From contig JBAZLG010000003.1 in NCBI GenBank assembly GCA_041650395.1, positions 310,917 to 374,916 on the forward strand: DNA of 64,000 nt. The letters run 5' to 3'. Under the pieces are notes generated by a model that ran no database searches, was not told the DNA's origin, and was given only the letters and a program-made list of their open reading frames with translations. A program made the position numbers and the translations under genes. Below, piece after piece: positions 4,201 to 63,988 of this stretch. How positions within the stretch are numbered: the first letter of the stretch is position 1; each line of letters starts with the position of its first letter. Origin of the DNA: Candidatus Micrarchaeia archaeon. GTDB lineage: Archaea; Micrarchaeota; Micrarchaeia; Anstonellales; VGKX01.

Positions 4201-7200
4201 TAGCGCACTGCCAGGCTGTCCCCGTCAACGTCCGAATACGGCGTCAGGTTGGTGCAGTTCACAAGCGTGCCGGGGTATGCAGGGGCGGATATGCCGACTG
4301 CGAAGTCTGTCGGCGGCGTGTTGCCTATAGTGATTTCGGTGGAATTGATTGCCTGGCCGTCAGCCATGCCGTCGCTTGGCCTGATTTCAAGCACCCATCT
4401 CTGGCCTTTAACTATGCCGCCGGTCCTGTTTGCGGCATTGGACTCAATGCCCTGGGCGAAGTACGCAGACGAGCCCGAAGAATTGAGCGTGCCATTGAGA
4501 TACCACTTGTAATTGTAATATACCGGGTCTGACTGGTTGTCGGTGGCGTTTGCCATGCCAACAAGTATGTAGCCGCGCCTGAACCCGCTGCCCCCGGTGG
4601 AATTGACAATCCGCGAGGAGAGCGCCGCGGGCGGCGTGTTGGCAGGCGAGGATATCACCCTGCTTACAGTGGCGTCAGTGTGGTCCGTCCCGTCGCTTGC
4701 CCTGATTGTGCAGGACAGGGTCATGCCGGCCGGGCATGTGGCAGGCGAGCACGAGAGCGTGCCCGCCGGGGAGAATGCCTGAAGCTCGGTTGTGGAATTG
4801 AAGAACCTGTAAGTGAGGGACACGGCGTCGCCGTCAGCGTCGGTTATCGCCGAAGTGTTGGCGCAGGTCACGGTCGAGTTAGGATACATCGGGACCGGAG
4901 AGAGGCCCGCCCCGAACGTGGACGGCGGCGAGTTCTGCACCACGTAGGACGTCGAGTTCTGTGCCGTGCCGTTGAGATAGCCGTCTGTAGGTATTGCCTG
5001 GCAGAATACCGTGTCGGACTTGTTGAAGTACGAGCTTGGAATCACCTGCGAAGCCGATACGAGGGCGCCGTTGACATACCACGCGTAATGCATCGAAGTC
5101 GAATCATTCTCTGGGTCCGACACGCTCGCGTTCTGGCAGGTCAGGCTCGGGTTGGCCTTCATGACAGGCACCGGCACAATGGAAGGCGCCGATGTCACGG
5201 GCGCGCCGTTGGGGAACGCGTGGACAGAAGGCGTAGTGGATGCCTGCTGCGACGCGCTGTCCCTGAACGTGATCGAGATGGTGGTGGAGACGCCTGACGC
5301 GCCGGTGCAGTAATAGGTTGCGTTAAGCGTCTTTATGCCCTGGGATATCGACTGGACAGTGCACGTGCCAGAGCTTGCAGAAATCTGGATGTTCGTGATG
5401 TCCTCCGAGCCGTCCGCGTCATATACCCCGCCTGTAACAGTGAACGAGTGGTTGGACGCCGAGTCCGCAAAGGTGTTTTGCACTGCGATGTACGGCGGGC
5501 TGTTTAGTATCTGCGTCGAGTTTGTCGCCGAAGTCGAGTTGATGCCGTACTGGTTGATTATTATGGCGTCCACATAGAGCCTGCCGGAGCAGCCTGCGGC
5601 AATGGAGCAGTCAAACGTGGCATTGCTTGAATACGCCCTGAGCGTGGCGGTCGAGTTCCTCACCCTGTAATAATAGGTATAATTGGTTCCGTCAGGAGTG
5701 GACGCGCCATAGCCTGCGAACGTGAAGCTGGAATTGCCATAGCCAGGCGACGGGCTGATTGTCACATTGGCAGGCGGGAAGGGCACGGAGCTCACGATTG
5801 TCAGGTTTGCCGAAGACTGGCTCGTGCCATTGGCATAGCCGTCTGTCGGGGTTATGCTGCACGAGACAATGTCTCCAATGGAGTATGAGGAGTTTGTCAG
5901 GTAGGATGTGGCTATTCCTGCCGAAGCGCCATTGACGGACCACGAATAGTAGAATGACACAGTGTCATTGTCGGGGTCGCTGGTGCTGCCGTTGGTGCAG
6001 TTTATCTGCGGCGTCTGCTTGTATGCAGTCGACGGTGCAAGGGACGGCGCCGAGGTCGCGGGCGCGTGGTTGGGGTATGAGTTAGCTGCGGGCGCCGACG
6101 CGTTGTACGCGCCCGACTTGTCGGTGAACCCGATCGAGACGGTGCTTGAGGCGAAGGCTGTGCCTGTGCACTCGTATGTCACATTGAAGTAGGAGCCAGA
6201 AGTGTAATTGGAAACATAAACGCACGAGCCGCTTGAAGAGGAAATGTTGGTCGAGGCTATGTCAGAGCCGCCGTCGGCGTCATAAACCCCGGCAGTGGCC
6301 CTGAACTTGTGGCCCGCGCTCTGGTTGGCAAAAACACTCTCGACTGCCAGCGCAGGGTTGGAATTGGATATCGCAAGCCCGGAGGAATTTGCCGCAGTGC
6401 CATTGAGCAGGCCGTCTGTAGGCGTCACCTGGCAGATTACAATGTCATTCTTATAGAAGTACGAGTTGTTGATTGAAGCTGCCGAGGGGGCAACCGCCAC
6501 GCCATTGACATACCACTTGTAATAATACGATACAGTGTCGCCTTCCGCGTCGAACGTGTTGTTTGGAGTGCAGCTTATCTGGGCAGTTGACTTGTAGGCA
6601 GGAATTGGGGCGAGTATCGGGGCAGCGGTGGTGGGCGCCGTGTTGTTTATCAAAAGCGCGCTCGAGTTGCGCGCCGTGCCGCTTGCCGTGCCGTCAAACG
6701 GCCTGATTTCGCAAACCACGCTTTGGCCGTTGGTGTATGACGAGTTAGTTATGTACTGGGTCGTTATGCCCGAATACGCGCTGTTGACAAACCACCTGTA
6801 AGTGAATGAGACCGAATCGCCGTCAGCGTCAGAGGTTGTCCCGTTGTTGCAGGTTATGTTTAAGGTAGTCTTGGCTGCCGTGGGCGGCGCGAGAGTCGGC
6901 ACTCCCGTCACAGGCAGGCTGTTTGATATCACAAGAGCGGAAGAATTGGACGCTGTGCCGTTCTGGTAGCCGTCATAAGGAGTGGCCTGGCAGACAAGGG
7001 AGTCGCCCCTGGCATAGGAGGCATTCGTGATGGAGCTTGTTGAAACCCCGGCACTTGCGCCGTTCTTGAACCACGAATAGCTGACTGACACCGTGTCATT
7101 GTCGATGTCCGCGCCTGTCGCCGAGCAGTTGACCTGCGCCGTAGTCACATACGCCGTGGAAGGCGAGAGGCTGATGTTGGAGATGGCAGGGAGATGGTTG

Positions 7201-10200
7201 GGGTATGAGTTCGCTGCTGGCGCAGACGCGTTGTACGCGCCCGACTTGTCGGTGAACCCGATTGAGACGGTGCTTGAGGCGAAGGCTGCGCCTGTGCACT
7301 CGTATGTCGCATTGAAGTAGGGGCCCGAAGTGGAATTGGAAACGTAAACGCACGAGCCGCTTGACGAGGAAATGTTGGTCGAGGCTATGTCAGAGCCGCC
7401 GTCGGCGTCATAAACCCCGGCAGTGGCCCTGAACTTGTGGCCCGCGCTCTGGTTGGCAAAAACGTTTTCGACTGCCAGCACAGGGTTGGAATTGGACACC
7501 ACGAGCGCCGAGGAATTGACTGCCGTGCCGTTCGCGATGCCGTCAAAGGGCGTTACCTGGCAGACAACCAAGCTCGATTTGTTGAAATTCGAGCTTGCAA
7601 GGTACGGGGTCGAGGCAGCCTGCGCCACGCCGTTGACGTACCACCTGTAGAAGAAAGCCACAGTGTCGTTCTCATTGTCGCTTGTGGTGCCATTGGTGCA
7701 GTTTATTTGTCCGCTGGACTTGTATGCGGGAATTGGCGAAAGAGCCGGTGCTGCGGTTACAGGCGGGGTGTTTGTAAGGGCGAGTATCGTCGAGTTAACA
7801 GCCGCGCCATTGCCGATTCCGTCATTGGGAGTAATCTGGCAGCGCAGGTCCACTGCATTGTAATAGGTGGCGTTGGTGACGGACTGGCCAGTTATGCCGG
7901 TAGAGGCATTGTTCACAAACCACAGGTAGGAGAACGTGACAGAGTCGCCATCGGCGTCCGCCGTCGTGTTGTTATAACACGTTATTGCAGGCGTGTTCTT
8001 GTTTGCCACTGAAGGCACGAGGTATGGCGCGCTTGTCACAGGCAGGCTGTTGGAAACCACAAGCGCGGTCGAATTCACCGCCGTGCCGTTCTGATAGCCG
8101 TCATAAGGAGTGGCCTGGCAGACAAGGGAGTCGCCCCTTGCATAGGAGGCGTTTGAAATGGAGCTCGTGGCAATGCCAGTGGACGCGCCGTTTTTGAACC
8201 ACAGGTAATTCAGTGTTACCGTGTCATTGTCCGCGTCGGACGGGGAGGCCGTGCAATTCACCTGCAAAGTAGATGCGTAGGCCACGGCAGGCGCCAGAGT
8301 CACGTTGGTTGCCACGGGCAGGTGGTTTGGATATGCAGCCACTGAAGGAGTCGAGGCATTGTAAGCGCCCGACTTGTCCGTGAAGCCGATTGAGACAGTA
8401 GTTGATGCAAGCGCGGTGCCAGAGCACTCGTATGTCACGTTGAAATATCCGCCCGCGGTCGAGTTTGAAACGTAAACGCACGAGCCGGAGGTCGAGGAAA
8501 TGTTGGTCGAGGCCATGTCTGAAGCCCCGTCGCCGTCAAACACGCCCGCGCTCACGCGGAACCTGTGCCCGGCGCTCTGGTTAGCTATCGAGTTCTGCAA
8601 TGCCATCTGCGGCACGGAGTTCAGTATGGCGAGGGGCGAGGAATTGACGCTTGTGCCATTGACAAACGGGTCTGAAGGCGTTACCTGGCAGACTATGGAG
8701 TCGCCCTTGGAATATGATGAATTCGTTATTGACTGGCTTGAAACCCCGGCAGAATTGCCATTTACAAACCACTTGTACGACAGCGTGACATTGTCGCCGT
8801 CCGGGTCATAGGTCGAATTCGCGCTGCAGGTTATGGAAGGCGTGGTCTTGTAAGCGGGCGTAGGCGAGAGCACGGGCGTGCCTGTGACAGGCGGCGAGTT
8901 TATCACCTGGACCTGCGACGAGTTCATGCTCGTGCCGTTTAGCTCCCCGTCAAAGGGAGTTATCTGGCAGATTATGGTGGCTCCATTGGAGAATGAAGAG
9001 TTCGTCAGGTTCTGGCTTGTAATGCCGGAAAAGTTGCCATTGACAAACCACTTGTAGTAGAATGACACATTGTCGCCGTCAAAGTCGGAACTCGTGCCGT
9101 TCACGCACGACACCTGCGACGTGTTCTGGTAAATGGTTGGCGGCGCTATTGCGGGGACCGAAGTCACGGGCGCCGTGTCCAGCACGGTGATTGTGGTGGA
9201 ATTTACGGCAGAGCCATTGACAGGGCCGTTTGTGGGGGTGGCTTCAAGGGTCCAGTTCTGGTGCTTCACTACGCCCGTGCCTGTGATGTTGGCTATGTTC
9301 ACAAGCGCGCTAGACGCGAAGCCGTTTGGAGTAGAGTAATTGACAATGGCATATACCTGCGTGACAAAGGTCGAGCCTGAAGTCGCCGGCCCTTTCGCCT
9401 TTACGCCGATTTGCAGGCTTGACATGTCCGCGGAGTTCCAGTTGCCAAAGTCGCTTGGCCTGTATTGCCATGAATCCGAGTATGTAGCCCACGAGGAAGT
9501 GACAGAGTGCGCTGCCCCCAGGGTCGTCACATTGTGCTCGCGTATCGCAAGCTCCACGGTCCCGCCAGTGCCAGCGCCGAATGATTCTGCGACCGCGAAG
9601 AGTTCCAATGAAGTGATTGGCGAGCCCGAAGGCACAATGCCGGACGTCACAGTGTAGAGGTCGAGCAGGTATGAGCCCGAATCCGCGAACACGTAGGACG
9701 TGAGGCCGTCCATAGACGCCTCGTCAACGCTTTGCCAGTTTGGCGGCGCGGGTTCCGCGCTTAGCTGGCTTGAATTGCCGATTCCCGCGGGGCGCAGGGT
9801 TGCGTTAGACGGCGCGGAAACAACCCCGATAGAGCCGCTTGAATTCAGGGTGCCGTCAAGATACCATTTGTAGTAATAGCCGAGGTTGTTGCCGTCAAAG
9901 TCAGTGCCATTTGCATAGCCGAGAAGGCTGGAATTCGTGTAAAGCGCGCTGCCGCCCGTGGAGTTCCTTATCTGGACAAGCGAGAGCTGCGGCTCGGAGC
10001 CCACTGCCACAAAGACAGAGGACGTGGCATTGGAATAGCCGTTTGAAGCGGTGACCTCAAATTTCCACCTGTCCCCGCCCACGGCAGGCGTGGAGTTGCC
10101 TATGTTTGCTTCAATTCCTTGCAGCACCGGGCCGAAACTGCCCGTGGAATTGAGCACCCCGTTCCTGTACCACTTGTAAGTGTAATTGAGCGTGTCATTG

Positions 10201-13200
10201 TCAGCCTGCGACGCGTTGGCATAGCCTACAAGCACGGAGCCGTTCCTAAACGTAGTGCCGCCAGTGGAATTGAGCACGCGCAGGGATGGAATCGAAGGGG
10301 GCATGTGCGAGATGGCAAAGGGCGATGAGTTGAGGGCGGTGCCATTGTCCAGCCCGTCAAAAGGCGTGATTTCAAGCACCCAGACCGAGTCCGCGGACAG
10401 GGACGAGTTTGGTATGGAGGAAATGTTCACAAGCCTGCCCTGCGTGTAATTGCCCGCAGCCACGCCGCTTGAGAACAATGCCCCGTTCTTGTACCATTTA
10501 TAGTAATATGACAATGTGTTGTTGTCCGCGTCAGTGGCATTGGCAAAGCCCACAAGGGTTCCGGAGCTGTCTGCGTAAGTGCCGTTTGTGGCATTGAGTA
10601 TTGTGCTGTTCGCCATGACAGGCGGGATGTTGGCATATGATATATATACGGGGCTAGAGTTGAGCGCCTGGCCCCTGATGCCGTTTGAGGGCGTGACCTC
10701 GAGTGTCCAGTTCTGGTATGAGACCAGGCCCGAGAAGTTCTGGACATTCACAAGCGCGGACGGCGAATACCAGCCATACGTGGAGCGGGCTGCCTGCTGG
10801 CCTATGCTGGCGTTTAAAATCCGGACCTCGTCAATCAGGCCGACAAAGCCGGAGTTGCGCGAGCCTGTGGCAAAGCCGTTGTCAGGCTCATAATTCGCCT
10901 TGCCCCTGCCTATGAGCGCAGTGTCGAATGTCATTGCCGGCATGCCGAAGGAGAAATTCGCCGCCTGGAACTCGTTGAGGTAAATGCTGGTTGTTGTGGA
11001 ATTGGCGCTGTATGCGATGTATTCCCATTGGCTGCTGTCAAGCGGGCCAGTGTAGAGGTTGCCCGAGAACGGCGCTATTGTGCCCAGGTAATACGTTATC
11101 CCGCTCTCGCCAGTGCCCGCGTAAATCATGCCCGTTGATGCCTCAAGCAGGGACTGGACGTATTTGGAGCTTGTCGAGGGGCCTATGTTGGCGTTCATGA
11201 GCGACCATGAGGCGCCCTTGTCAGCGCTCTTGTACACCCTGCTCCTGTATGAGGACGAGCTTGTTCCAATCCTCGCGCCCGCGTAGATTGTTCCGTCCGA
11301 GCCTTCAAGCAGGGACTGGACGTCAGAAGCGCTTGTGAGCGTGCCGGTGTTTGCCCAAGTCGTGCCATTGTCAGTGCTTTTTAGCACCCTGCCCGAAGTG
11401 GATGTCTGTGACGCGGCCGCGTAGATGGAGCCATCGTCCGCCGCCAGGAACGCGTTTACCGAAACCGAGCCTGAATAAGCCGAAGACCAGCTGGAGCAGT
11501 CCGCGCTTTTGTAAATCTCCCCTGACGCGCTGCCCGCGAGGAACGTGCCCTGCGAAGTTATCATGAGGGAATTGACTGCCGTGGCGCCGACAACAGAGCC
11601 GCATGAGAGTTGCCATGAGCCGCCCGAATATTTCAATATGTTCTCGGTGTCCGTGGCCACGTAAATTGAGCCATCAGGCGCGCGCGCAAGCTGCGTGGCG
11701 GTGGTTGCTCCTGAAAGCGAGCCAGTGTCTGTCCAGTTGGACAGGTTTGAGGCCGAATAATAGACCTTGGCCGTGCCCGCACCGTCATCTCCCGCAGCAT
11801 AAACAGAGCCGTCGGGCATCACCAGAATCGAATTCACAAGGGTGGAAAGCCCCGCATAGCTCCAAGTGGCGCCGTCGTCGGAGCTTGAATACAGGCCGAT
11901 GTCGGTCCCTGCAAGAAGCTTGCCGGACGGGGACTCGGCAAGGCTCCTCACAATGCCGCCGCCGGAGATGGTGGAAGAGTTCCACGCCCCCGCCTTGTCA
12001 ATAGCAGTGGCGTAGAGCCTGCCAGATGAGAACGAATAGCCGATTTTGAGCTGGGAGAGGTTGCCGCCAAGGACGATATAGTCCATGTTGGTTTTGTTGC
12101 CGGAATAATTGGCAGAGAGGTTGGGGCGAAGCCACATTTCAACCGACAATGCGTTAAGGCCGGACATCTGGGCAGAAGTGACGTTCGCGTAGATTTGCGC
12201 CGCCGCCTGCGAGTTTGAAGAATATGATTCCTGCGGGAAATATCTCGCATTTCCAAAGCGCGCCGCAGAGACGCCTGCGCCGCTTGTCGCAGTCGCATTG
12301 AACCTGCCCGTGGCGTCTGCGACTAGGGTGCCGTTGGTTTCGCCCATGTGCCAGAGCCCCAGGGTTGAATTGCCAAGTGCGAAAGTCGAGGCATTTGAAA
12401 CGTGGTCGGCGTAGCGCAGAGTGCCGTCCTGGTACCATTTCAGGTAATAAGTAACCATGTCAGAGGAATTGGCGCTTGTCGCGTTTGCCCAGCCTGTCAG
12501 GTTCATCCTGGCATTGAAATACGTGCCGCCCGTAGAATTGAGTATTGCCGATAGGTTCATGCGCGGGGGCTTTGACCCGCCGCCGCCCGACTCCACGCAC
12601 GTCCACGCGCACGTGCCGTCCGGGCACATCATGTTTGGCGCAATGCAGTTCGGGTCATAATCGCAAGTTGACGGCGTGATGCCGTTTATCCTTACCCACG
12701 CGGCAGTGCCTGAAACAGATATGTTCTGTGGTATTCCTACGTGCACGAAGTCGGAGCCTATCAGGTTGTCGTTCGAGTCGTATACGCCCACCACGTTGCT
12801 CATTCTCGAGACATTGTCCGTAAGCTGCCATGAATAGTTGGTCAGCCGCAGGCCGGGGCTTGTGCAAAGCAGCCCTGTGTATGCGTCCGTGATATTTACA
12901 GTGACAACGGAGCCGGACTGGCTCATGTTCGCGCGGTAGCTGCCCACAAGCCAGCCGCCGGGTGCGTCCATTTTCTCCTGCTGGTCGCGCGTCACGTCGA
13001 GGCTCGTATAATTTGAAAAGACGACGGTGACAAGCCCGGGCAGGCGCGACTTTATGTCCTGCACGTCTATGTCGTAAAGCGAGCAGTTGACCGGGTCGGG
13101 CACGAAATAAGCCAGGCCGGGGCCGTAGTTGTGGACATATGAAGTGGTGTTGTTTTCAATGAAGAAAAGCCCGACCCTGGAGCTGTTATAGCCCGGCTGG

Positions 13201-13394
13201 CAGACCTTGAGCCAGAGGTTGTCCTGGTTTGTCAGGCTGCTGTCCTTGTAGCTTTCAGTGCCGCTGTCCCAGTGCAGCCAATATGTGTTATTGGACTGGT
13301 CGACGAAACTAACAGTGGCGAAAAGGTTGCCTGCTAGGATGAATGCCGCAATGGCGAGAAATGCATAAACTGATGCCTTGTGCAAATTGACCAC
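1242..13394 (-). CDS. Giant (4050 aa) secreted, membrane-anchored surface glycoprotein/adhesin. Architecture N to C: signal peptide, LamG-like jelly-roll domains, BNR/Asp-box beta-propeller repeats, more than 14 beta-sandwich modules with DxDxDG motifs, an FN3/PKD-like module, knottin-like Cys modules, 3 C-terminal TM helices and a K/P-rich cytoplasmic tail
   Basis: A single uninterrupted 12.15-kb ORF. N-terminal signal peptide MVNLHKASVYAFLAIAAFILAGNLFA. LamG-like motifs (LGLWHMGETNGTLVADATG...VEMWLRP and GLIDEVRILNASI). Asp-box repeats SxDxGxTW (SSSDDGATWSY, STDNGTTWANTG, SADKGASWSL). Repeated roughly 95-aa modules with DADGD/DPDGD followed by Y(Y)YKW(Y/F)xNG, then CQxTPxDG. C-terminal CxxxxxxCxxDxDCCSGxC cysteine modules, three hydrophobic helices, then a basic Pro-rich tail. 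Dozens of N-x-S/T sequons. The start codon lies 4 bp downstream of the upstream gene's stop. Confidence 0.85.
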   Translation of the reverse strand: MVNLHKASVYAFLAIAAFILAGNLFATVSFVDQSNNTYWLHWDSGTESYKDSSLTNQDNLWLKVCQPGYNSSRVGLFFIENNTTSYVHNYGPGLAYFVPDPVNCSLYDIDVQDIKSRLPGLVTVVFSNYTSLDVTRDQQEKMDAPGGWLVGSYRANMSQSGSVVTVNITDAYTGLLCTSPGLRLTNYSWQLTDNVSRMSNVVGVYDSNDNLIGSDFVHVGIPQNISVSGTAAWVRINGITPSTCDYDPNCIAPNMMCPDGTCAWTCVESGGGGSKPPRMNLSAILNSTGGTYFNARMNLTGWANATSANSSDMVTYYLKWYQDGTLRYADHVSNASTFALGNSTLGLWHMGETNGTLVADATGRFNATATSGAGVSAARFGNARYFPQESYSSNSQAAAQIYANVTSAQMSGLNALSVEMWLRPNLSANYSGNKTNMDYIVLGGNLSQLKIGYSFSSGRLYATAIDKAGAWNSSTISGGGIVRSLAESPSGKLLAGTDIGLYSSSDDGATWSYAGLSTLVNSILVMPDGSVYAAGDDGAGTAKVYYSASNLSNWTDTGSLSGATTATQLARAPDGSIYVATDTENILKYSGGSWQLSCGSVVGATAVNSLMITSQGTFLAGSASGEIYKSADCSSWSSAYSGSVSVNAFLAADDGSIYAAASQTSTSGRVLKSTDNGTTWANTGTLTSASDVQSLLEGSDGTIYAGARIGTSSSSYRSRVYKSADKGASWSLMNANIGPSTSSKYVQSLLEASTGMIYAGTGESGITYYLGTIAPFSGNLYTGPLDSSQWEYIAYSANSTTTSIYLNEFQAANFSFGMPAMTFDTALIGRGKANYEPDNGFATGSRNSGFVGLIDEVRILNASIGQQAARSTYGWYSPSALVNVQNFSGLVSYQNWTLEVTPSNGIRGQALNSSPVYISYANIPPVMANSTILNATNGTYADSSGTLVGFANATDADNNTLSYYYKWYKNGALFSSGVAAGNYTQGRLVNISSIPNSSLSADSVWVLEITPFDGLDNGTALNSSPFAISHMPPSIPSLRVLNSTGGTTFRNGSVLVGYANASQADNDTLNYTYKWYRNGVLNSTGSFGPVLQGIEANIGNSTPAVGGDRWKFEVTASNGYSNATSSVFVAVGSEPQLSLVQIRNSTGGSALYTNSSLLGYANGTDFDGNNLGYYYKWYLDGTLNSSGSIGVVSAPSNATLRPAGIGNSSQLSAEPAPPNWQSVDEASMDGLTSYVFADSGSYLLDLYTVTSGIVPSGSPITSLELFAVAESFGAGTGGTVELAIREHNVTTLGAAHSVTSSWATYSDSWQYRPSDFGNWNSADMSSLQIGVKAKGPATSGSTFVTQVYAIVNYSTPNGFASSALVNIANITGTGVVKHQNWTLEATPTNGPVNGSAVNSTTITVLDTAPVTSVPAIAPPTIYQNTSQVSCVNGTSSDFDGDNVSFYYKWFVNGNFSGITSQNLTNSSFSNGATIICQITPFDGELNGTSMNSSQVQVINSPPVTGTPVLSPTPAYKTTPSITCSANSTYDPDGDNVTLSYKWFVNGNSAGVSSQSITNSSYSKGDSIVCQVTPSDPFVNGTSVNSSPLAILNSVPQMALQNSIANQSAGHRFRVSAGVFDGDGASDMASTNISSTSGSCVYVSNSTAGGYFNVTYECSGTALASTTVSIGFTDKSGAYNASTPSVAAYPNHLPVATNVTLAPAVAYASTLQVNCTASPSDADNDTVTLNYLWFKNGASTGIATSSISNASYARGDSLVCQATPYDGYQNGTAVNSTALVVSNSLPVTSAPYLVPSVANKNTPAITCYNNTTADADGDSVTFSYLWFVNNASTGITGQSVTNATYYNAVDLRCQITPNDGIGNGAAVNSTILALTNTPPVTAAPALSPIPAYKSSGQINCTNGTTSDNENDTVAFFYRWYVNGVAQAASTPYLASSNFNKSSLVVCQVTPFDGIANGTAVNSSALVVSNSNPVLAVENVFANQSAGHKFRATAGVYDADGGSDIASTNISSSSGSCVYVSNSTSGPYFNATYECTGAAFASSTVSIGFTDKSGAYNASAPAANSYPNHLPAISNISLSPSTAYVTTAQVNCSATGADIDNDTVSVSYSWFKNGASAGVSTSSITNASYARGDSLVCQATPYDGYQNGTASNSSALVISNSLPVTGVPTLAPPTAAKTTLNITCNNGTTSDADGDSVSFTYRWFVNSAYSGITTQYITNSSYTNGQSVVCEIRPFDGTASGTARNSSALLINNTAPTTAAPILAPIPAYKSTAQISCTPNNTFDAEGDTVSYYYKWYVNGVAVAPSAASINNSYFYKNDIVICQVTPTDGLLNGTAANSSGLAISNSNPALAVESVFANQSAGHKFRATAGVYDADGGSDIASTNISSSSGSCVYVSNYTSGSYFNVTYECTGTAFASSTVSIGFTDKSGAYNASAPAANSYPNHAPATSAPSLAPSTAYKQTPQINCTNGSTSDPDNDTVSFYYSWSVNGASAGIATSYLTNSSYSIGDIVSCSITPTDGYANGTSQSSANLTIVSSVPFPPANVTISPSPGYGNSSFTFAGYGASTPDGTNYTYYYRVRNSTATLRAYSSNATFDCSIAAGCSGRLYVDAIIINQYGINSTSATNSTQILNSPPYIAVQNTFADSASNHSFTVTGGVYDADGSEDITNIQISASSGTCTVQSISQGIKTLNATYYCTGASGVSTTISITFRDSASQQASTTPSVHAFPNGAPVTSAPSIVPVPVMKANPSLTCQNASVSDPENDSTSMHYAWYVNGALVSASQVIPSSYFNKSDTVFCQAIPTDGYLNGTAQNSTSYVVQNSPPSTFGAGLSPVPMYPNSTVTCANTSAITDADGDAVSLTYRFFNSTTELQAFSPAGTLSCSPATCPAGMTLSCTIRASDGTDHTDATVSRVISSPANTPPAALSSRIVNSTGGSGFRRGYILVGMANATDNQSDPVYYNYKWYLNGTLNSSGSSAYFAQGIESNAANRTGGIVKGQRWVLEIRPSDGMADGQAINSTEITIGNTPPTDFAVGISAPAYPGTLVNCTNLTPYSDVDGDSLAVRYQFSTGSGVVQAFSSSSQFACSASTCPAGTNLTCTASAFDGTDYTNASASTTIQSIPNAPPQAGSVSLLNSTNGTYVARQNAIYGWATSTDPNGDSISYYYSWYLNGARNRTGFASGFQSGVSGLVSSIPASEVVKGQIWTLEVVPTDGTLNGTAANSSALTVQNTAPQAPYLIAPSSGQVLTNGNVSFDWSDSADPDGDNVSYYLYMGTSPGPAFYGISTSSATNLSLSPGTYYWRVAGFDGTGFSANSSEWNFTIDLSAPSVQFVAPTPAQNYIGSTGRLDINASISAVANISSCTVTINGISFNGTLSSQAPPAYCSYSLPTAQAGSYNYSVLVATTDSRLGYSGTRTYMENSPPSLVSVSSANATVAFEQPWQVYANATDLQSSLQALNYSFYLGTSLSSLALAQSGTSPSAYFSLADNTTYYWQAVISDGLNSTSSPVFALRADFSELAASIASPAQSQVIADTLDFAMVYRILNPQNSISCSYELADSNGTVINSSAIACNATSLSVAAPAYGTYTVRLYETDYLGYSHTANATFSLSQSPPPVSSGGGAVERKLQVDLAATCAGETATITVRDYATRQLLDSSVEVTPSSLGLSPVSVSTSSAGKYVFVPEAGSYQLSVSKVGYSSTSKYFTVQSCAVPPSCRNLTVSCQNDYDCCSGICTDGICSLERNQTPVVLPPINLTVNAQCTQFYGSASVSPPDATLSLYRIVKNVRVPESLFHNGTGAYIFQPSQNGTFVVTAVRNGYLYSEKQFEVVDCAKPPACLPDGQVCSLGTSCCSGYCSEAAVCEARLPVSQCKLPSASCQSTKECCSGECVANRCAECSPLLQKCQISSDCCTGFCNMEGRCVLGEVVPAPGIQLPQIPVESIALPLAWLVLAASAYMVYRVSIGMAFFPIELGLLPVVAGMFVHPVIGIAVAAIELVIVTKSGLPATVKEFLARRRRGKGDGQVPPQDIPIGDYGLREQKEGPQKPAPPAPKED
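4800..9300 (-). repeat. Four tandem copies of an intragenic repeat with an 1128-bp (376-aa) period inside the giant gene. The two central copies (about 5930-8185) are nearly identical at DNA level
   Basis: Antisense ORF translations recur at a 1128-bp offset (5962..6192 vs 7093..7320; 7096..7353 vs 8224..8481). The stretch 6181-6330 is about 95% identical to 7311-7460. The protein-level super-repeat NP(V/A)LAVE(N/S)VFANQSAGHKFRATAGVYDADGGSDIASTNISSSSGSCVYVSN... occurs twice almost verbatim, with two diverged flanking copies. Confidence 0.7.
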
Positions 13395-25651: not shown

Positions 25652-27187
25652 ATGCAAATAACCGAGATAGTCAATCACGAATCAATAACAAACTTTGCCG
25701 AAAGATTGTCTAACTATTACTCCAATGAAAAGAAGGGGACAAACAAGAAAGAAAAAGGACAATATTTTACGCCTGCGAGTATCGCGGCATACATGGCATC
25801 ACTCGCTGATGTTCAATCCGAATCGATAAAAATACTTGATCCGGGAGCAGGTCTTGGGATACTTTCAGTTGCATTAATAGAAAAAATAAGAGAAAAAAAC
25901 AAGCGGCTAATCAATGTAGAATTGACATTATACGAGAACGACGAAAAAATTATACCTTACTTAAACGAAGTAATGAATATAATGAAGAAAAGACTTTCGA
26001 AATATAATGTAGGATTTAATTACGAAGTCAGACAAGAAGACTTCGTTGCATCTAATGTAAAATACATAACACCAAAACTTAATTCTTTTAACGAAGCGGA
26101 ATATCCGAAATACGATATAATAATATCTAACCCGCCTTATTTTAAAATAAATAAAAAAGAAATTGAAACCTACGGAATCGAGCAAATAACTGCAGGCCAG
26201 CCAAACATATACTACATTTTCATGGCAATTGCGACAAACATGCTAAGCAATGAAGGCCAAATGATATTCATTACACCAAGAAGCTTTTGCTCTGGGTTGT
26301 ATTATAGCAGTTTTAGGAATTGGCTAATCAAAAGAGTCCATTTCTCACAGGTCCACATATTCAAATCCAGGAAAAACGTGTTTGCAAAAGACAAGGTACT
26401 ACAGGAGAATGTGATAACCAAATTTACAAAGACCAAGCCACTAAAGATTGTCATGTCTACAAGTGAAGGAAGAGACATGGACGAGATAAAAAAAACAGAA
26501 GTAAATGAAGACGACATAATCTACAAATCTAACGGGCACATATTCTTCAGGTTGCCTGCGGATAAGGAAGAACTTGCAATAATAAGAAAACTGGACAAAT
26601 TGCCGATGAATTTCTACAAACTAGGGTACAAAATATCAACAGGAAAAGTAGTAGCCTTTAGAAATAGTGAATATTTGAAAAAAGAGATTGGTGAAAAAGA
26701 CATTCCGTTGATATGGATGCATAACATAAGAAATATGAGGATACTCTGGCCGAGCGAGAAAAATGGGAAGGCTAGGGCGATAGAAAAAAACGAAAAAACA
26801 AAAAAATTGCTAATAGAAAACGGCAATTACGTTGTTATGAAAAGATTTACCACAAAGGAACAGAAAAAAAGATTTGACGTTGCGCTTGTCACAGATGAAG
26901 ATTTTAAAAAACAAGGATATTTTGCATTAGACAATATGCTAAATTACATATATTGCCCTGGCAAAAAGCTGAATAGGGAAACAATAAGTGGCATTGCAGA
27001 ATATTTATCTCTCCCAATAGTGGACAGATATTTTAGGATATTAAACGGCCATACTCAGGTCAATGCAAATGAAGTCTACGCGCTTCCATTTCCAGAAGCA
27101 AAAAAATTAGAAAAAATAGGAAAGAACACTGATAAATTTGCTAATGAAAAACAGGAAAGAATATTGGAACAAATATTAACAAATTAG
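25652..27187 (+). CDS. N6-adenine DNA methyltransferase, gamma class (PstI/BsuBI/Eco57I-like), 511 aa
   Basis: QYFTP motif, motif I ILDPGAGLGILS, motif IV IISNPPYFKI. Size matches M.PstI/M.BsuBI-type enzymes. Confidence 0.85.
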   Translation: MQITEIVNHESITNFAERLSNYYSNEKKGTNKKEKGQYFTPASIAAYMASLADVQSESIKILDPGAGLGILSVALIEKIREKNKRLINVELTLYENDEKIIPYLNEVMNIMKKRLSKYNVGFNYEVRQEDFVASNVKYITPKLNSFNEAEYPKYDIIISNPPYFKINKKEIETYGIEQITAGQPNIYYIFMAIATNMLSNEGQMIFITPRSFCSGLYYSSFRNWLIKRVHFSQVHIFKSRKNVFAKDKVLQENVITKFTKTKPLKIVMSTSEGRDMDEIKKTEVNEDDIIYKSNGHIFFRLPADKEELAIIRKLDKLPMNFYKLGYKISTGKVVAFRNSEYLKKEIGEKDIPLIWMHNIRNMRILWPSEKNGKARAIEKNEKTKKLLIENGNYVVMKRFTTKEQKKRFDVALVTDEDFKKQGYFALDNMLNYIYCPGKKLNRETISGIAEYLSLPIVDRYFRILNGHTQVNANEVYALPFPEAKKLEKIGKNTDKFANEKQERILEQILTN

Positions 27188-27201
27188 GCAGGGGTTGTTT
27201 C

Positions 27202-28131
27202 ATGAGGAAAGTTGACGATGCACTGGAAATCTTGAGAGAGCTTAACGTGCCAAGAAAACAACAGAATGAAAGGACAGCCCTGACTCTATTGGCTTTACTC
27301 TCGCTAAAAAACAACAAGCCTTGGAAAAGTGCCAAGAAAACTTTGATAAGAATACATGACATCATGATTTTCATAAAAAATGAATACAAGAAGAAATACG
27401 CAGAAAACACCAGAGAAACAATAAGAAGACAAAGCCTTCACCAACTGGAAAAAGAAGTAGGAATTGTTGAAAGAAATTCAGATGACCCAACAAGACCAAC
27501 AAACAGCCCAAATACAAAATGGGCGGTTACAAAAGAGGCACTTGAAACAATAAGAAGCTACGGGACAAAACAATGGAAAAAGAATGTGGACAATCTGATG
27601 CAAAAGCGAGGAAGAAGTGAAAGCTCCGGCTGGCAACGCGCAAAACCCGCACAAGGAGTAATTATAGATGAGAAGGAATATCCCTTGTCGCCAGGAAAAC
27701 ATAATAAACTCCAAATAGACATAATTGGAAACTTCAGGGAAATTTTTTGCAAAGACGCAGAAGTGCTTTATTTCGGTGACACCGCTAAGAAAATGCTCTT
27801 CTTAAATGAAAAGAAATTGAAGGAGATAGGACTGAAGATAACAAAACATGAAATATTGCCAGACATTGTCCTACTGGACAATGCCAAAAATAGACTTTAT
27901 CTTATAGAAGCAGTTACATCACATGGCCCAGTATCAAAGAAGAGACAAATTGAATTGACAGAGTACTTCGCAAAAGTCGGCTTTAAAAAAATTTTTGTCA
28001 GCGCTTTCCCCGACTTTAAAGAATTCAAAAGGCATATAGATGACATCGCTTGGGAAACAGAAGTGTGGATAGCTGAAATGCCGGAGCACATGATTCATTT
28101 CAACGGCGACAAGTTCCTAAAAATAGACTGA
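27202..28131 (+). CDS. Candidate cognate restriction endonuclease (BsuBI/PstI family), 309 aa
   Basis: It starts 15 bp after the methyltransferase stop on the same strand in the AT-rich island. The size and the N-terminal winged-helix-like region followed by a C-terminal acidic/Lys-rich region are consistent with the R.BsuBI/PstI family. The assignment is from gene context and memory only, with no alignment. Confidence 0.5.
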   Translation: MRKVDDALEILRELNVPRKQQNERTALTLLALLSLKNNKPWKSAKKTLIRIHDIMIFIKNEYKKKYAENTRETIRRQSLHQLEKEVGIVERNSDDPTRPTNSPNTKWAVTKEALETIRSYGTKQWKKNVDNLMQKRGRSESSGWQRAKPAQGVIIDEKEYPLSPGKHNKLQIDIIGNFREIFCKDAEVLYFGDTAKKMLFLNEKKLKEIGLKITKHEILPDIVLLDNAKNRLYLIEAVTSHGPVSKKRQIELTEYFAKVGFKKIFVSAFPDFKEFKRHIDDIAWETEVWIAEMPEHMIHFNGDKFLKID

Positions 28132-55885: not shown

Positions 55886-56338
55886 TCAATTTACAATTAC
55901 CTTTCCCCTCATGCCCGGATGTATAGTGCAATAATAGTCATAAGTTCCGCTTGAATTGAACTGGTAGCTCCACGAACTCCCGGCGGGGATGTTGCCTGAA
56001 TTGAAAATCCCGGAAGTTGAAGTGGCAGTGTGCGCCACAGGGTCGCTGTTTGACCATGTAACAACCGTGCCCGCTGGCACCGTGATTTCCGCAGGCGAGA
56101 ACGCAAAGCCGCCTATGTCGACGCGGGCCTGCGCCGAAGGCGCGCCTGCGGGCTGGGGCGGCTGCGGGATAGCGCCATTGCCAGGCTGCCCGGAATCAGG
56201 CGGCGCGGGCGGCATTGCGCCCTGCCCCGTGTTTTGCGCGCCGGGCTGTTGGGGCGCGGCCTGGCCGCCAGTGCAGCCAAAAAGCAGGATTGCGGAAATA
56301 ATCAGCACGAATAAAAACCATTTGCCCATTGGAACCAC
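55886..56338 (-). CDS. Halocyanin/amicyanin-like type-1 blue copper protein (cupredoxin) lipoprotein
   Basis: Lipobox-like LLFGCTGG; Pro/Gln-rich linker. Copper ligands in DPVAHTATS (His) and CTIHPGM (Cys-x2-His-x2-Met). Confidence 0.75.
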   Translation of the reverse strand: MVPMGKWFLFVLIISAILLFGCTGGQAAPQQPGAQNTGQGAMPPAPPDSGQPGNGAIPQPPQPAGAPSAQARVDIGGFAFSPAEITVPAGTVVTWSNSDPVAHTATSTSGIFNSGNIPAGSSWSYQFNSSGTYDYYCTIHPGMRGKVIVN

Positions 56339-58524: not shown

Positions 58525-58670
58525 CTATTTATATTGGACATTAAATGTCCCTGTTAGGATGTAACCTGTGTAATTTATAATAGCCCCCAATGCGGCAAAA
58601 AACGCGTTTTTTGGGAAATTGCGACAATTTTGGGGGAAATTAAGAAGATAAAAGGAAAAAAAAGGAATGG

Positions 58671-61011: not shown

Positions 61012-62592
61012 TCAGTTCCTGCTGTTGAATGCAAATTCTATGAGGCTTGCCCTTATCTCAAGCAGTTGCCTCATTTTCCCGTCAAGGGCAGATGCAACAG
61101 AGAGCAGGTAGCATTCTATTGCATTTTCAAATTGTTTGGCTTTATAGAAGTTTTCCGCAGCTTCCAGATAATACTGCGAGTGCACGCTCTCGCCGCACAG
61201 GGGCACGACATATTGAAGCCACATGCCTGCCTCGCCATGCCTGCCTTCGGCCTCAAGCTCTCTTGAGTAATTAATGCCATTTGAGGCTATTTTGATATTG
61301 CAAATCGCCTTTACTTGCGGGACTTGAGTCAAGTTCTCCGCCTGCGAGTACATTGAAATTATGTCTTCATAGCGGCCTTCTGATTCAAGGTAAGCCTGAA
61401 TGCCAACGAGCATTTTCAATCCAGAATTTGCAAGCTCTTCGGCTTCCTGGCTGCTCATTGCATGGTTTCCTGCCTTCAACAATGAAAACGCGGAATCCAG
61501 GTCATTATTGCTTCTGGCAAAATAGTCCGCCGCCTTGAGGTGGTACGCCTTTTTTATGTCATTCTCAATTGCGGTTTCAGCGCCTGCATTGTACAACTTT
61601 CCAAGCCTTTCAAGCAGCCATTCAAGTGCGGGTGCCGGGCGGTTTTTCACGTATTCAGATTCTGCCTGCTTGAAATTCGACTCTGCCTGTGCCTCGTATT
61701 TGAAAGCTCTGTCCTTGCTGTTTGTGGCAAGGCTCGCGTAATGATAAGCCACACCCGCCTCTTCAGGCTTTTTTGCAAGTGCATAATGCCTGCCAGCCAA
61801 TGCAAAATAGTATTCTTTTTTCTCGCTGTCGTCTGTTGCCAGGCCCGCCTTCATGTATGACTCCGCAGCCAGGCGGTTCTGGACACTGCTTCCATAGCCT
61901 GTCCCCTGGCTGTAATGCTTTCCTGCCAGGGCATTGCATTTCTCAATTGCCGCGGGCTCTTCTGACAATTTCGCCATTTCCTCGTACGCATTGCCGAGAT
62001 AATCGCTGTTTTTGCAATTGCCGCCAATAACTTTTTTGAGAAGGCTTATTTTTTCAATTTTGCCTTCGGTTTTTTCTGCCGCCCGCAAGTACATGAAATA
62101 TGCCAGTTCGTCTCCGTTTTTTTCAAGTATGTCTCCCATCCTGGCAAGGTAACTGGGCGTTTCCTTCCCTTTCCATGCAGCGCAGGAAGTTGCATACTCG
62201 AAACCGTTTAGCATCTTGTTTATGCTGCCTGCGATTATGGCCTCCTCGCCTCCAAGTGCATAGCTCTTTTCCGCCTTTTCAAAATAGTGCGATTTTTTTT
62301 CCGGTTCTGACGCCGTATTTCCGGCATCCTGGTATGCGCGCCCCGCGTCGCGGTAGCATTCCGAGGCATTCAGGTGGTCGTCTGCTTTCAGGTAATAATG
62401 CGCAGCCTTCTGAAAATGATTGGCGCAAGTGTCGTCTTCTTTGGTGCGCCTGCCTTTGATTTCGTGGTATTTCGCCTTTGGGACGTTTAGCAACTTGGAG
62501 AGGAAAACAAGTTCTGCGCCCTTTTGCCTGCCGCTTGCCTTGGCCTCTGCACTTTGGGCCTGGGCTGGCATTTTGCATTCTGCGGGTTTCAT
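61012..62592 (-). CDS. TPR/SNAP-like alpha-solenoid repeat protein (526 aa)
   Basis: Recurrent motifs (KKSHYFEKAEKSYALGG; KKEYYFALAGRHYALAKK; AAHYYLKADDHLNASECY; AAESYMKAGLATDD) with a roughly 35-40 aa period. Confidence 0.55.
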   Translation of the reverse strand: MKPAECKMPAQAQSAEAKASGRQKGAELVFLSKLLNVPKAKYHEIKGRRTKEDDTCANHFQKAAHYYLKADDHLNASECYRDAGRAYQDAGNTASEPEKKSHYFEKAEKSYALGGEEAIIAGSINKMLNGFEYATSCAAWKGKETPSYLARMGDILEKNGDELAYFMYLRAAEKTEGKIEKISLLKKVIGGNCKNSDYLGNAYEEMAKLSEEPAAIEKCNALAGKHYSQGTGYGSSVQNRLAAESYMKAGLATDDSEKKEYYFALAGRHYALAKKPEEAGVAYHYASLATNSKDRAFKYEAQAESNFKQAESEYVKNRPAPALEWLLERLGKLYNAGAETAIENDIKKAYHLKAADYFARSNNDLDSAFSLLKAGNHAMSSQEAEELANSGLKMLVGIQAYLESEGRYEDIISMYSQAENLTQVPQVKAICNIKIASNGINYSRELEAEGRHGEAGMWLQYVVPLCGESVHSQYYLEAAENFYKAKQFENAIECYLLSVASALDGKMRQLLEIRASLIEFAFNSRN

Positions 62593-62755: not shown

Positions 62756-63367
62756 ATGAGAAAACTGGTTGTGCTGACTTTCATAAGCCTTGACGGAGTG
62801 ATGCAGGCGCCTGGCGGACCTGAAGAGGATACCACCGGCGGCTTCAAGTACGGAGGCTGGACTTTCCCCTACTTTGACGATTTTGGGAATAAGGTGATGG
62901 GAAAGCAGATGGGGCATAAATTTGATTTGCTTCTTGGCAGGAAAACCTACGAGATATTTGCAGGCTACTGGCCCAATGCAAAGCCCGAGCAGAAGGCAAT
63001 TGCAGATCCGTTGAACAACGCGAAGAAATACGTTGCATCAAGGACGTTGAAGAAGCTTGAGTGGAAAAATTCCGAGCTTCTCAAAGGCGATGTCGCGCAG
63101 GCAGTCAGGAAAATAAAGGAACAGGACGGGCCTGAAATACAGGTCCATGGCAGTGGCGACCTTATCCAGACGCTTCTGAAAAACGACTTGGTGGACGAGC
63201 TTTGGCTGAAAATATTTCCTGTCACTTTGGGCAGCGGCAAGCGGCTGTTTGCACAAGGCACCATACCTGCGGGTTTCAAGCTAATTGAAAGCTCGGTTTC
63301 CCCAAGCGGGGTGATATTTGCGTCTTACGCACGAGCAGGTGCGGTAAAGACAGGCTCGTTTGCCTAA
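62756..63367 (+). CDS. Dihydrofolate reductase-like protein (RibD C-terminal domain family)
   Basis: MRKLVVLTFISLDGVMQAPGGPEEDTTGGFKYGGWTFPYFD is the characteristic N-terminus of this family. GGAGG lies 8 nt upstream of the ATG at 62756. Confidence 0.75.
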   Translation: MRKLVVLTFISLDGVMQAPGGPEEDTTGGFKYGGWTFPYFDDFGNKVMGKQMGHKFDLLLGRKTYEIFAGYWPNAKPEQKAIADPLNNAKKYVASRTLKKLEWKNSELLKGDVAQAVRKIKEQDGPEIQVHGSGDLIQTLLKNDLVDELWLKIFPVTLGSGKRLFAQGTIPAGFKLIESSVSPSGVIFASYARAGAVKTGSFA

Positions 63368-63500
63368 ATGAACAGGCTTTCACTTTCGGCAAACTTCTCA
63401 AAAAAGAAGGGTTAAAGTGATAAAAGCGGCAACAGCGGAAGGATTTTTCAGCGCATATCCCAAACATGCCCGTGTAGCTAAGGCAAGCAAAAACGCATCT

Positions 63501-63592
63501 ACTTGTCGCAAGCGACAAGTCAGTCGTAATTCTTGCGAATTACTCCTTCTACTTGCCCTGTCGGGCAAGTCTGCAAAAATGTTATTTTTGCA
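63501..63592. promoter_or_regulatory. Cluster of four consecutive perfect inverted repeats (hairpins) in a convergent intergenic region
   Basis: ACTTGTCGC-aa-GCGACAAGT (63501-63520). GTAATTC-ttgc-GAATTAC (63526-63543). ACTTGCCC-tgtc-GGGCAAGT (63551-63570). TGCAAAAAT-gtt-ATTTTTGCA (63572-63592). The first and third share ACTTG...CAAGT ends. Confidence 0.6.
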
Positions 63593-63670
63593 TCAGACCG
63601 TCCGCTAGGCTCTCGTTAGTCTGCCTGAGCGCCACACACAGGTCATTTCCGCGGAAACAGGGCGCCATCT

Positions 63671-63988
63671 TCATTTGAATAGGGCATCCCTCAGCTCTTT
63701 CTTCAACTTCAGAAGGTTCGTCTTCCCGACCTGCTCCTTTACCAAAACGCCGCGCCTGACGAGCTTTTCCACCGTGCGGTGGGTCTTCACTTTGCCAAGC
63801 CCCTCGAGCCGGGAAACGCTCGCCTGCATGGCCTGGCCCCCGCCCTCCAGGATTTTCTCAAGAACCTTGGATTCATCCGCGCCCAACACCGAAAGAAATG
63901 CCTTTTTCCTGTCGATGTGCGGGCCTGGAACGTCTATTTTCTTCTCAAAGTAAAGGTAGGCCGCCATCACTCCGAAAACAAAGCCCAA
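63671..63988 (-). CDS. Membrane-anchored winged-helix transcriptional regulator-like protein (105 aa)
   Basis: N-terminal TM helix (MGFVFGVMAAYLYF). C-terminal wHTH-like region LSVLGADESKVLEKILEGGGQAMQASVSRLEGLGKVKTHRTVEKLVRRGVLVK. Confidence 0.5.
   Translation of the reverse strand: MGFVFGVMAAYLYFEKKIDVPGPHIDRKKAFLSVLGADESKVLEKILEGGGQAMQASVSRLEGLGKVKTHRTVEKLVRRGVLVKEQVGKTNLLKLKKELRDALFK

Follow-up and report, generated by a model that had tools for sequence, protein, structure and literature searches.

DPANN archaea have tiny, gene-dense genomes, and their non-coding DNA is almost unstudied. Near the right-hand end of a 64,000-nucleotide stretch from a Candidatus Micrarchaeia archaeon (contig JBAZLG010000003.1, positions 310,917 to 374,916 of the forward strand; the whole stretch is called the window here), four perfect palindromes stand back to back between two convergent genes. 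This cluster consists of tandem two-hairpin modules of about 50 bp, which belong to a dispersed, modular family of intergenic palindromes in Micrarchaeota. The best explanation for the whole, to which a probability of about one in two is given, is that the modules are repeats resembling bacterial repetitive extragenic palindromic (REP) elements, that they act as a bidirectional back-stop terminator or 3'-end protector, and that they spread as units. The original prediction, made from the letters alone, had offered three roles for the hairpins: a multi-hairpin terminator or RNA stability element, tandem operator sites, or a structured small RNA (sRNA). The first of these is kept as the most plausible and the other two are given up. 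What the prediction had missed was the main point, that the cluster holds two tandem copies of a two-hairpin module from a dispersed repeat family.

The palindrome cluster is real and clearly non-random. Its four members are perfect, do not overlap, and lie at 63501-63592 as first reported:

63501-63520, no strand: H1, a type-A hairpin, ACTTGTCGC-aa-GCGACAAGT, with perfect 9-bp arms and a 2-nt loop
63526-63543, no strand: H2, an AT-rich hairpin with an 'AATT core', GTAATTC-ttgc-GAATTAC, with perfect 7-bp arms and a 4-nt loop
63551-63570, no strand: H3, a type-A hairpin, ACTTGCCC-tgtc-GGGCAAGT, with perfect 8-bp arms and a 4-nt loop
63572-63592, no strand: H4, an A5/T5 palindrome and candidate bidirectional oligo-T terminator, TGCAAAAAT-gtt-ATTTTTGCA, with perfect 9-bp arms and a 3-nt loop

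When the whole window was scanned for perfect hairpins with a stem of at least 7 bp and a loop of 2-6 nt, 27 were found, four of them within these 92 bp and 23 scattered over the other 63.9 kb; the total expected from block shuffles (n = 1000) is 17.3 +/- 4.0. Four or more hairpins per 100 bp arose in only 2 of 1000 block shuffles. On both strands, the 141-nt cluster region folds more strongly than shuffled versions of it (z -3.67, plus strand; z -5.67, minus strand), and after correction for GC content no other part of the window is as strong a folding outlier as its minus strand. Single hairpins have folding energies of -6 to -14.6 kcal/mol on either strand, with a difference between strands of 0-1.5 kcal/mol; the values are -9.8 (plus) and -10.4 (minus) kcal/mol for H1, which as RNA has 8 bp and a 4-nt loop, and -13.1 and -14.6 kcal/mol for H3. 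At 18-21 bp, the palindromes are short stable stem-loops of the kind seen in REP elements and bacterial interspersed mosaic elements (BIMEs). The flanks that RNAfold draws into a closing helix round the four hairpins pair no better than shuffles (z -0.2 and +0.8), and a multibranch RNA held together by such a helix was rejected. H1-H4 are four independent hairpins there.

How are the four hairpins organized? The direct repeat TCTACTTG at 63498 and 63548 sets a 50-bp period, which is also marked by ..CAAGTC. H1 and H3 have TCT-ACTTG-YC..GR-CAAGT-C in common, and behind each of them comes an AT-rich hairpin. The half-sites ACTTG/CAAGT that had been noticed in H1 and H3 are part of this likeness: ACTTG-N10-CAAGT occurs twice in the cluster, 50 bp apart. 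The consensus of the GC-rich type-A hairpin can be written TCT-ACTTG-YC(N)..(N)GR-CAAGT-C. Because of the TCTACTTG repeat, the common type-A hairpin and the AT-rich partner of each, the cluster is read as two tandem modules of about 50 bp:

63498..63547, no strand: module 1, ~50 bp, composed of TCT + H1 + CAGTC + H2 + TCCT
63548..63597, no strand: module 2, ~50 bp, composed of TCT + H3 + C + H4 (A-run/T-run) + TC

A covariance model of the type-A family (R1) scores H1 at 38.3 bits and H3 at 43.4 bits, and with filters off it finds no additional type-A copy in the window.

Relatives at other loci were sought with the pattern TCTACTTGYC-N6-GRCAAGTC in 596 Gbp of species-representative genomes and in metagenomes. 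The species-representative genomes contain 14 matching loci. Two of them, L006 and L007, lie in another Micrarchaeota metagenome-assembled genome, WY5.bin13; the remaining 12 have neither the family flanks nor neighbouring hairpins, and at least one is in coding sequence. The 38 matching loci in metagenomes are mostly due to chance and include two clear family members from one sample: L052, on a 421-kb contig (Ga0265297_10000053), and L053, on a 629-kb contig (Ga0265297_10000030). With two sites in L053, related units are present at five other loci.

At L006, TCT-ACTTGCCC-tatc-GGGCAAGT-C is followed after 1 nt by TAGAAAAAATG-cacta-CATTTTTTCTA at the 3' end of an AMMECR1 gene. At L007, the same type-A hairpin stands 25 nt past a tRNA-Arg gene; 1 nt further on comes TGAACTTTTTG-tatgg-CAAAAAGTTCA, and a four-hairpin cluster is completed by CATGTCGC-ttt-GCGACATG, which is H1-like, and by an AT-rich hairpin. 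The H3 stem is identical in both loci, and the architecture of module 2, with its 1-nt spacing, recurs at L006 2199-2249 and L007 7227-7177. The order of modules is reversed, however: the H1-type and AT pair precedes the H3-type and A/T pair in the window, and at L007 the H3-type and A/T pair precedes the H1-like and AT pair. Downstream of the tRNA-Thr gene of L052 stands TCT-ACTTGTCC-tgct-GGACAAGT-CAGTC-GCAATTC-ttc-GAATTGC-TCCTTC; window positions 63514-63549 are 92% identical to L052 630-596 over 36 nt (E 3.7e-6), a segment that extends beyond the search pattern. L053 carries ACTTGTCC-tggc-GGACAAGT-C-TCGTCGC-ttgc-GCGACGA together with a third type-A copy, a degenerate one, upstream of a tRNA that contains an intron (missed by ARAGORN, 46 bits with Rfam), and further hairpins downstream of that tRNA, opposite a convergent P-type ATPase gene.

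The units vary between loci in order, number and orientation. Three of the six clusters lie between convergent units, and the rest lie after a tRNA gene, at a gene 3' end or upstream of a tRNA. Outside the window, copies are found after tRNA-Arg, tRNA-Thr and the tRNA with an intron, at the 3' end of AMMECR1, and facing the P-type ATPase gene and a small open reading frame (ORF). Extragenic placement, mostly downstream of ORFs, in tandem or convergent arrangement, is thus common to the window cluster, the other copies and REP/BIME elements. The family appears to be a REP-like palindromic repeat family of a DPANN lineage, previously undescribed; the literature searched contained no description of DPANN palindromic repeat elements of such a kind. 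A viral, plasmid or phage origin was considered and set aside, since viral scans yielded unrelated matches only and BLAST none at all. Inside the AMMECR1 coding region of L006, about 100 nt from the module-2 copy, there is also a perfect 10-bp palindrome with the H1 core at 2347-2368, CTTGTCGCAC-gt-GTGCGACAAG, which encodes LSHTCDK.

Are the stems maintained as stems? In an alignment of six type-A copies, four of which were found through a search pattern that fixed six of the eight type-A pairs, all 48 helix cells are paired. Two of the eight pairs vary on both sides, by changes between C-G and U-A and between C-G and G-C, and the observed score was reached by 3 of 500 shuffles. The AT-rich hairpin of module 1 tells a similar story: H2 (GTAATTC/GAATTAC) and its counterpart in L052 (GCAATTC/GAATTGC) differ by one compensatory pair, U-A to C-G. 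Sub-families that differ by stem substitutions, as in REP/BIME elements, are therefore seen for both type A and H2. Perfect stems with compensatory changes across genomes argue for selection on pairing. CTAC/GTAG stands at the type-A stem base in all six aligned copies, in four of which the pattern required it; the degenerate type-A copy of L053 has CCAC in place of CTAC.

Two loci bear on how the modules may spread. At L053 2040-2136, the 5' end of the neighbouring intron-containing tRNA is present as a second copy, which exactly one 42-nt two-hairpin module splits between GCAGGGGT and GGCGG. This comparison of a filled with an empty site suggests that the module inserts as a unit. At L052 586-762, the 3' end of tRNA-Thr(GGT) with its trailer, GCCCGAGGCTCAC, is followed 39 nt downstream by a perfect 13-nt inverted copy and 165 nt downstream by a 12-nt direct copy; the two copies form a perfect closing helix, an inverted repeat of 10-13 nt, round four hairpins. 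These copies look att-like or like a fold-back duplication. The combination of terminal inverted repeats and target-site duplication that marks transposable elements of the miniature inverted-repeat kind (MITEs) is not seen, the repeats at L052 being copies of the adjacent tRNA end. It may be speculated that whole modules spread, either through insertion resembling transposition or because palindromes recombine with one another, and that the conserved type-A stem base with its flank could be the recognition site of a mobilising or binding protein.

What might the array do where it now stands? The context is as originally described, with a dihydrofolate reductase family gene converging on a gene for a membrane-anchored winged helix-turn-helix (wHTH) protein. 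The features around the cluster are:

62756..63367, plus strand: RibD_C/dihydrofolate reductase family gene, outside the element (Pfam RibD_C, 9.5e-24)
63444..63448, plus strand: T5 run, the first oligo-T after the RibD_C stop (+77), before the cluster
63489..63493, minus strand: A5 on the plus strand, that is T5 on the minus strand just past H1; possibly a partial copy of the H3/H4 junction (GGCAAG..CAAAAA), a weak call
63582..63674, minus strand: called 30-aa ORF MKMAPCFRGNDLCVALRQTNESLADGLMQK, which overlaps the wHTH stop via ATGA and whose TAA end lies in the H4 loop
63671..64000, minus strand: 3' part of the gene for a 166-aa protein with two transmembrane (TM) segments and a DUF7343 wHTH domain; its stop is at 63671 and it continues to ~64171 (L001 10916-11416)

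The cluster sits in a 303-bp gap between the two genes, the longest convergent gap of the window (others are 7-102 bp). H4 has T5 on both strands, at 63585-63589 on the plus strand and as the complement of 63575-63579 on the minus strand. The first run of at least five T after the wHTH stop is in H4, at +92, and H4 is at +218 from the RibD_C stop. H4, placed downstream of the two convergent genes, thus combines a stable stem-loop with a U-tract in either direction; H1-H3 have no U-tract. It is because of the position between convergent 3' ends, the T5 runs of H4 on both strands and the place of H4 as the first T-run after the wHTH gene that the terminator or stability option is the most plausible one.

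Since the stems consist of Watson-Crick pairs only, they can fold on both strands. Every palindrome would fold in the transcript of a polymerase reading in from either side, and H4 would provide an oligo-U tract in either direction. It is from these two properties that the proposed role is derived: on read-through from both sides, the array could serve as a back-stop terminator or insulator in both directions, and its 3'-terminal hairpins could form a block against exonucleases. A role as bidirectional back-stop terminator or 3'-end stabiliser is, by inference from placement and folding, the most likely one for the array. Perfect inverted repeats have been found to peak at +50 to +80 past stop codons, archaea included (PMC13155455), and archaeal termination uses U-tracts with aCPSF1/FttA (PMC8716108). 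In Escherichia coli, REPs attenuate read-through and stabilise upstream mRNA, with effects on convergent gene pairs (bioRxiv 10.64898/2026.03.23.713779). Another perfect palindrome like H4, with A6/T6 (CAAAAAAC-gc-GTTTTTTG), lies at 58596-58613, 58 nt downstream of a small HTH_3 gene, and is terminator-like on both strands.

Several observations weigh against REP-like modules that spread as units and terminate or protect transcripts. The usual 3' signal elsewhere in the window is a bare T5-T8 run, 3-25 nt past the stop and without a hairpin; since this appears to be the ordinary terminator of the genome, hairpins would not be generally needed. Because a plus-strand T5 run precedes the cluster, H1-H3 may rarely be transcribed. 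Both points make it possible that the elements are neutral or selfish. No transposase was found among the ~48 ORFs of the window and the other loci that were scanned or annotated, a set that left out four ORFs without Pfam domains (including one of 4050 aa) and a few small ones, and no integrase among the window ORFs scanned. The window copy is flanked by neither a target-site duplication nor a terminal inverted repeat, and its flanks pair as shuffles do. The conservation of type A is in part an effect of ascertainment, because the search that led to four of the six copies prescribed most of the stem. There are two type-A copies in 64 kb and 6-7 clear copies known in all, and L052 and L053 could come from the window's own organism.

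Could the modules be passengers? Selfish or neutral palindromic DNA, in the form of REP- or MITE-like passengers or by-products of template switching that persist in 'safe' DNA past terminators without host function, is a possible though doubtful alternative. It would agree with the position of the cluster past the first plus-strand T5 run, with a convergent gap of a length that fits insertion, with the shuffling of module order and orientation between loci, with the filled and empty site in L053, with the nesting of palindromes within tRNA-end-derived palindromes, and with the possible partial copy at 63481-63496. The stems, however, stay perfect through compensatory changes across genomes, H4-type palindromes hold T-runs of the kind that the genome uses for termination, and no mobilising enzyme was identified. 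A more specific proposal is that the hairpins are single-stranded DNA signals for an HUH/Y1 nuclease of the IS200/IS605, RAYT or Rep type, as the ends of elements like REPINs or palindrome-associated transposable elements (PATEs) or as a replication or recombination site. Perfect Watson-Crick stems, pairs of related hairpins in each cluster and the insertion-like event in L053 fit this proposal, and CTAC/GTAG at the type-A stem base is reminiscent of GTAG-tagged REPs (PMC3733652). For four of those six copies, however, the tag was already contained in the search pattern; its GT is base-paired, and it lies 3' of the hairpin on its own strand, a polarity opposite to that of E. coli REPs. No Y1/HUH gene was found among the window ORFs scanned, and signals of this kind are unlikely to be the explanation.

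The two options of the original prediction that were given up fare less well still. If H1 and H3 were binding sites in double-stranded DNA, either a tandem operator pair of some dimeric regulator, for example the adjacent wHTH protein, or places where a global DNA-binding protein or an insulator protein attaches, then conservation of the outer 5 bp and flanks with a variable inner stem would be expected, and this is observed, as are two ACTTG-type hairpins in each cluster found elsewhere. A span of 1.1 kb also holds three exact ACTTG-N10-CAAGT sites, where 0.05 would be expected in 64 kb; the third site, at 62493-62512 (ACTTGGAGAGGAAAACAAGT), is not a hairpin, lies in the 5' end of a 526-aa ORF 1 kb from the cluster and may be either a chance occurrence or a genuine site. 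The cluster nevertheless stands between two 3' ends (two stop codons) and not at a promoter, TATA-like boxes being found upstream of the neighbouring genes instead. The N10 interior is always self-complementary and covaries, which an operator in B-form DNA does not need; the other copies, near tRNAs, AMMECR1, PurA and a P-type ATPase, have no HTH neighbour; the wHTH protein is an orphan without homologue; and the half-site words are not over-represented. The genome's operator-like palindrome of an ArsR operon differs in sequence and sits at a promoter (L001 15644). Operators are accordingly an improbable explanation, and an uptake-sequence-like over-representation of half-sites is ruled out, the words not being enriched.

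The least probable explanation is an independent small RNA with four hairpins, most likely read from the minus strand. The minus strand is the window's top folding outlier, its loops include GCAA and CUUG, and a T5 run lies past H1 on that strand. Yet there is no Rfam match above chance, even at E<=10, no TATA- or BRE-like promoter on either side, unlike at the neighbouring genes, and no closing helix better than shuffles; the strands differ by only 0-1.5 kcal/mol per hairpin, and hairpin number, order and orientation vary between loci, unlike in one RNA gene. Loop types, with GCAA and CUUG found on the minus strand, were tried as a guide to strand assignment and dropped, being inconsistent across family members.

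A bolder proposal goes beyond REP-like repeats with a terminator or stabiliser role, and is tentative and rather unlikely. The 42-50-bp modules would be an undescribed class of mobile or maintained DPANN element, in which a dedicated protein, perhaps an HUH/Y1-type nuclease, perhaps a factor that terminates or processes transcripts specifically at hairpins, reads the sequence-conserved type-A base (T|CTAC-TTG..CAA-GTAG). Insertion would take place beside or within palindromes already present, including copies of tRNA termini, and the modules would have been recruited as bidirectional terminators that depend on hairpins, in a lineage that by default terminates at bare oligo-T.

The surroundings of the cluster fit an archaeon, with genes for L15e, Pop5, RtcB and an archaeal-type ProRS in the window. 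The RibD_C protein is 75-77% identical to bacterial proteins (Deltaproteobacteria, Armatimonadota). The closest relatives of its gene, on two short unclassified contigs, are 88-89% identical and stand in different contexts without hairpins. Because nucleotide similarity to them ends exactly at the ORF boundaries, the gene seems to have been acquired laterally by this archaeon as a gene-sized transfer. The wHTH protein has no homologue except itself among 5.8 billion proteins. With the wHTH gene an orphan and the RibD_C relatives placed elsewhere, no orthologous locus was usable for synteny or covariation; a PurA fragment from L052, used as a query, had no close relatives. As with the 30-aa ORF that ends in the H4 loop, the AMMECR1 stop codon at L006 is inside the loop of an A/T-run hairpin. 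Rfam and tRNA models gave no match in the window at gathering score, and 63350-63700 gives chance matches with E 0.2-0.7. A tRNA remnant to the left of the cluster (GTAGCTAAGG.., D-arm-like) was considered and discarded, having no Rfam support at E<=10.

ENA and Logan contigs across the locus are 100% identical to the window and hence uninformative on strain polymorphism. Two contigs of the independent Logan assembly (SRR8542065) end at 63604 and 63575, with a 30-nt (k-1) overlap inside H4, which means that the cluster is a branch point of the assembly graph, owing to a population variant or a repeat. About 4.4 kb past the window end, at L001 15644-15661, the palindrome TATGAAT-gttt-ATTCATA stands at the start of an operon of ArsR (HTH_5) and P-type ATPase genes and looks like a classical autoregulatory operator, in contrast with the hairpin cluster. 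Further away, a low-GC island at 25652-28131 (35% versus 55%) holds genes for a DNA methylase of Eco57I/N6 type and for a restriction endonuclease of the BsuBI/PstI family and is probably a laterally acquired restriction-modification system. A single ORF of 4050 aa at 1242-13394 on the minus strand, probably for a giant surface protein, is followed by CARDB-containing and unannotated large ORFs. The strong folding score at 56100-56260 (75-78% GC) belongs to the Pro/Gly/Gln/Ala-rich linker of a cupredoxin lipoprotein.

Why would such repeats matter? A conserved family of modular palindromes would mark gene boundaries and terminators in DPANN genomes, and may be an instance of REP/REPIN-like selfish or domesticated DNA outside Bacteria. 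The defined hairpin TCT-ACTTGYC..GRCAAGT-C could serve as bait for a binding or mobilising protein. For annotation, the findings advise caution, in that clusters of this kind would be repeats, as opposed to sRNA genes or operators specific to one locus. Less probably, the cluster marks a new mobile-element or hairpin-recognition system in archaea. If the elements are plain neutral repeats, their interest is modest and descriptive.

Which known systems do the modules resemble? Canonical archaeal oligo-T terminators, which combine a U-tract with aCPSF1, share T5 runs on both strands with the cluster and have T5-T8 runs elsewhere in the window; those elsewhere have no hairpins, and the type-A hairpin has no counterpart there. 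Bidirectional intrinsic terminators of bacterial convergent genes are alike in their A-run and T-run arms, which give a hairpin and U-tract on each strand (H4; 58596-58613), and in their position between convergent 3' ends. Archaeal RNA polymerase, on the other hand, stops at oligo-T with aCPSF1/FttA (PMC8716108) and does not need a hairpin. The U-run of H4 is, moreover, within the 3' arm and not past it, and three more hairpins without a U-tract accompany it.

MITEs and PATEs, which derive from insertion sequences (IS) and can have palindromic ends of the IS200/IS605 type, are likewise short, non-coding, dispersed and intergenic, with strong secondary structure, and the filled and empty site in L053 adds one insertion-like comparison. 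They differ from the modules in that the window copy lacks terminal inverted repeats and target-site duplication, the units are of 42-50 bp, and no cognate transposase is known.

The closest parallel is with bacterial REP/BIME elements, both GTAG- and CGTC-tagged (PMC3733652). REPs are located between tandem and convergent genes and have a terminator and stabiliser role (bioRxiv 10.64898/2026.03.23.713779; PMC3733652). The Micrarchaeota family departs from them in its host, a DPANN archaeon, in a unit that is seemingly a two-hairpin module and in a copy number that is not known to be high. Its CTAC/GTAG tag is half inside the stem, with the GT paired, and has the opposite polarity to that of E. 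coli REPs, and no REP-associated tyrosine transposase (RAYT) was found in the ORFs scanned, from the 64 kb and 4.8 kb of genome read. The likeness is nevertheless extensive: palindromes 20-25 bp long, whose stems have 7-9 bp and whose loops have 2-4 nt, possibly a short conserved tag at one stem end, sub-families that arise by complementary stem changes, clusters of variable order and orientation, placement downstream of genes in tandem or convergent arrangement with an occasional intragenic unit (L006), and a proposed role as terminator and mRNA stabiliser.

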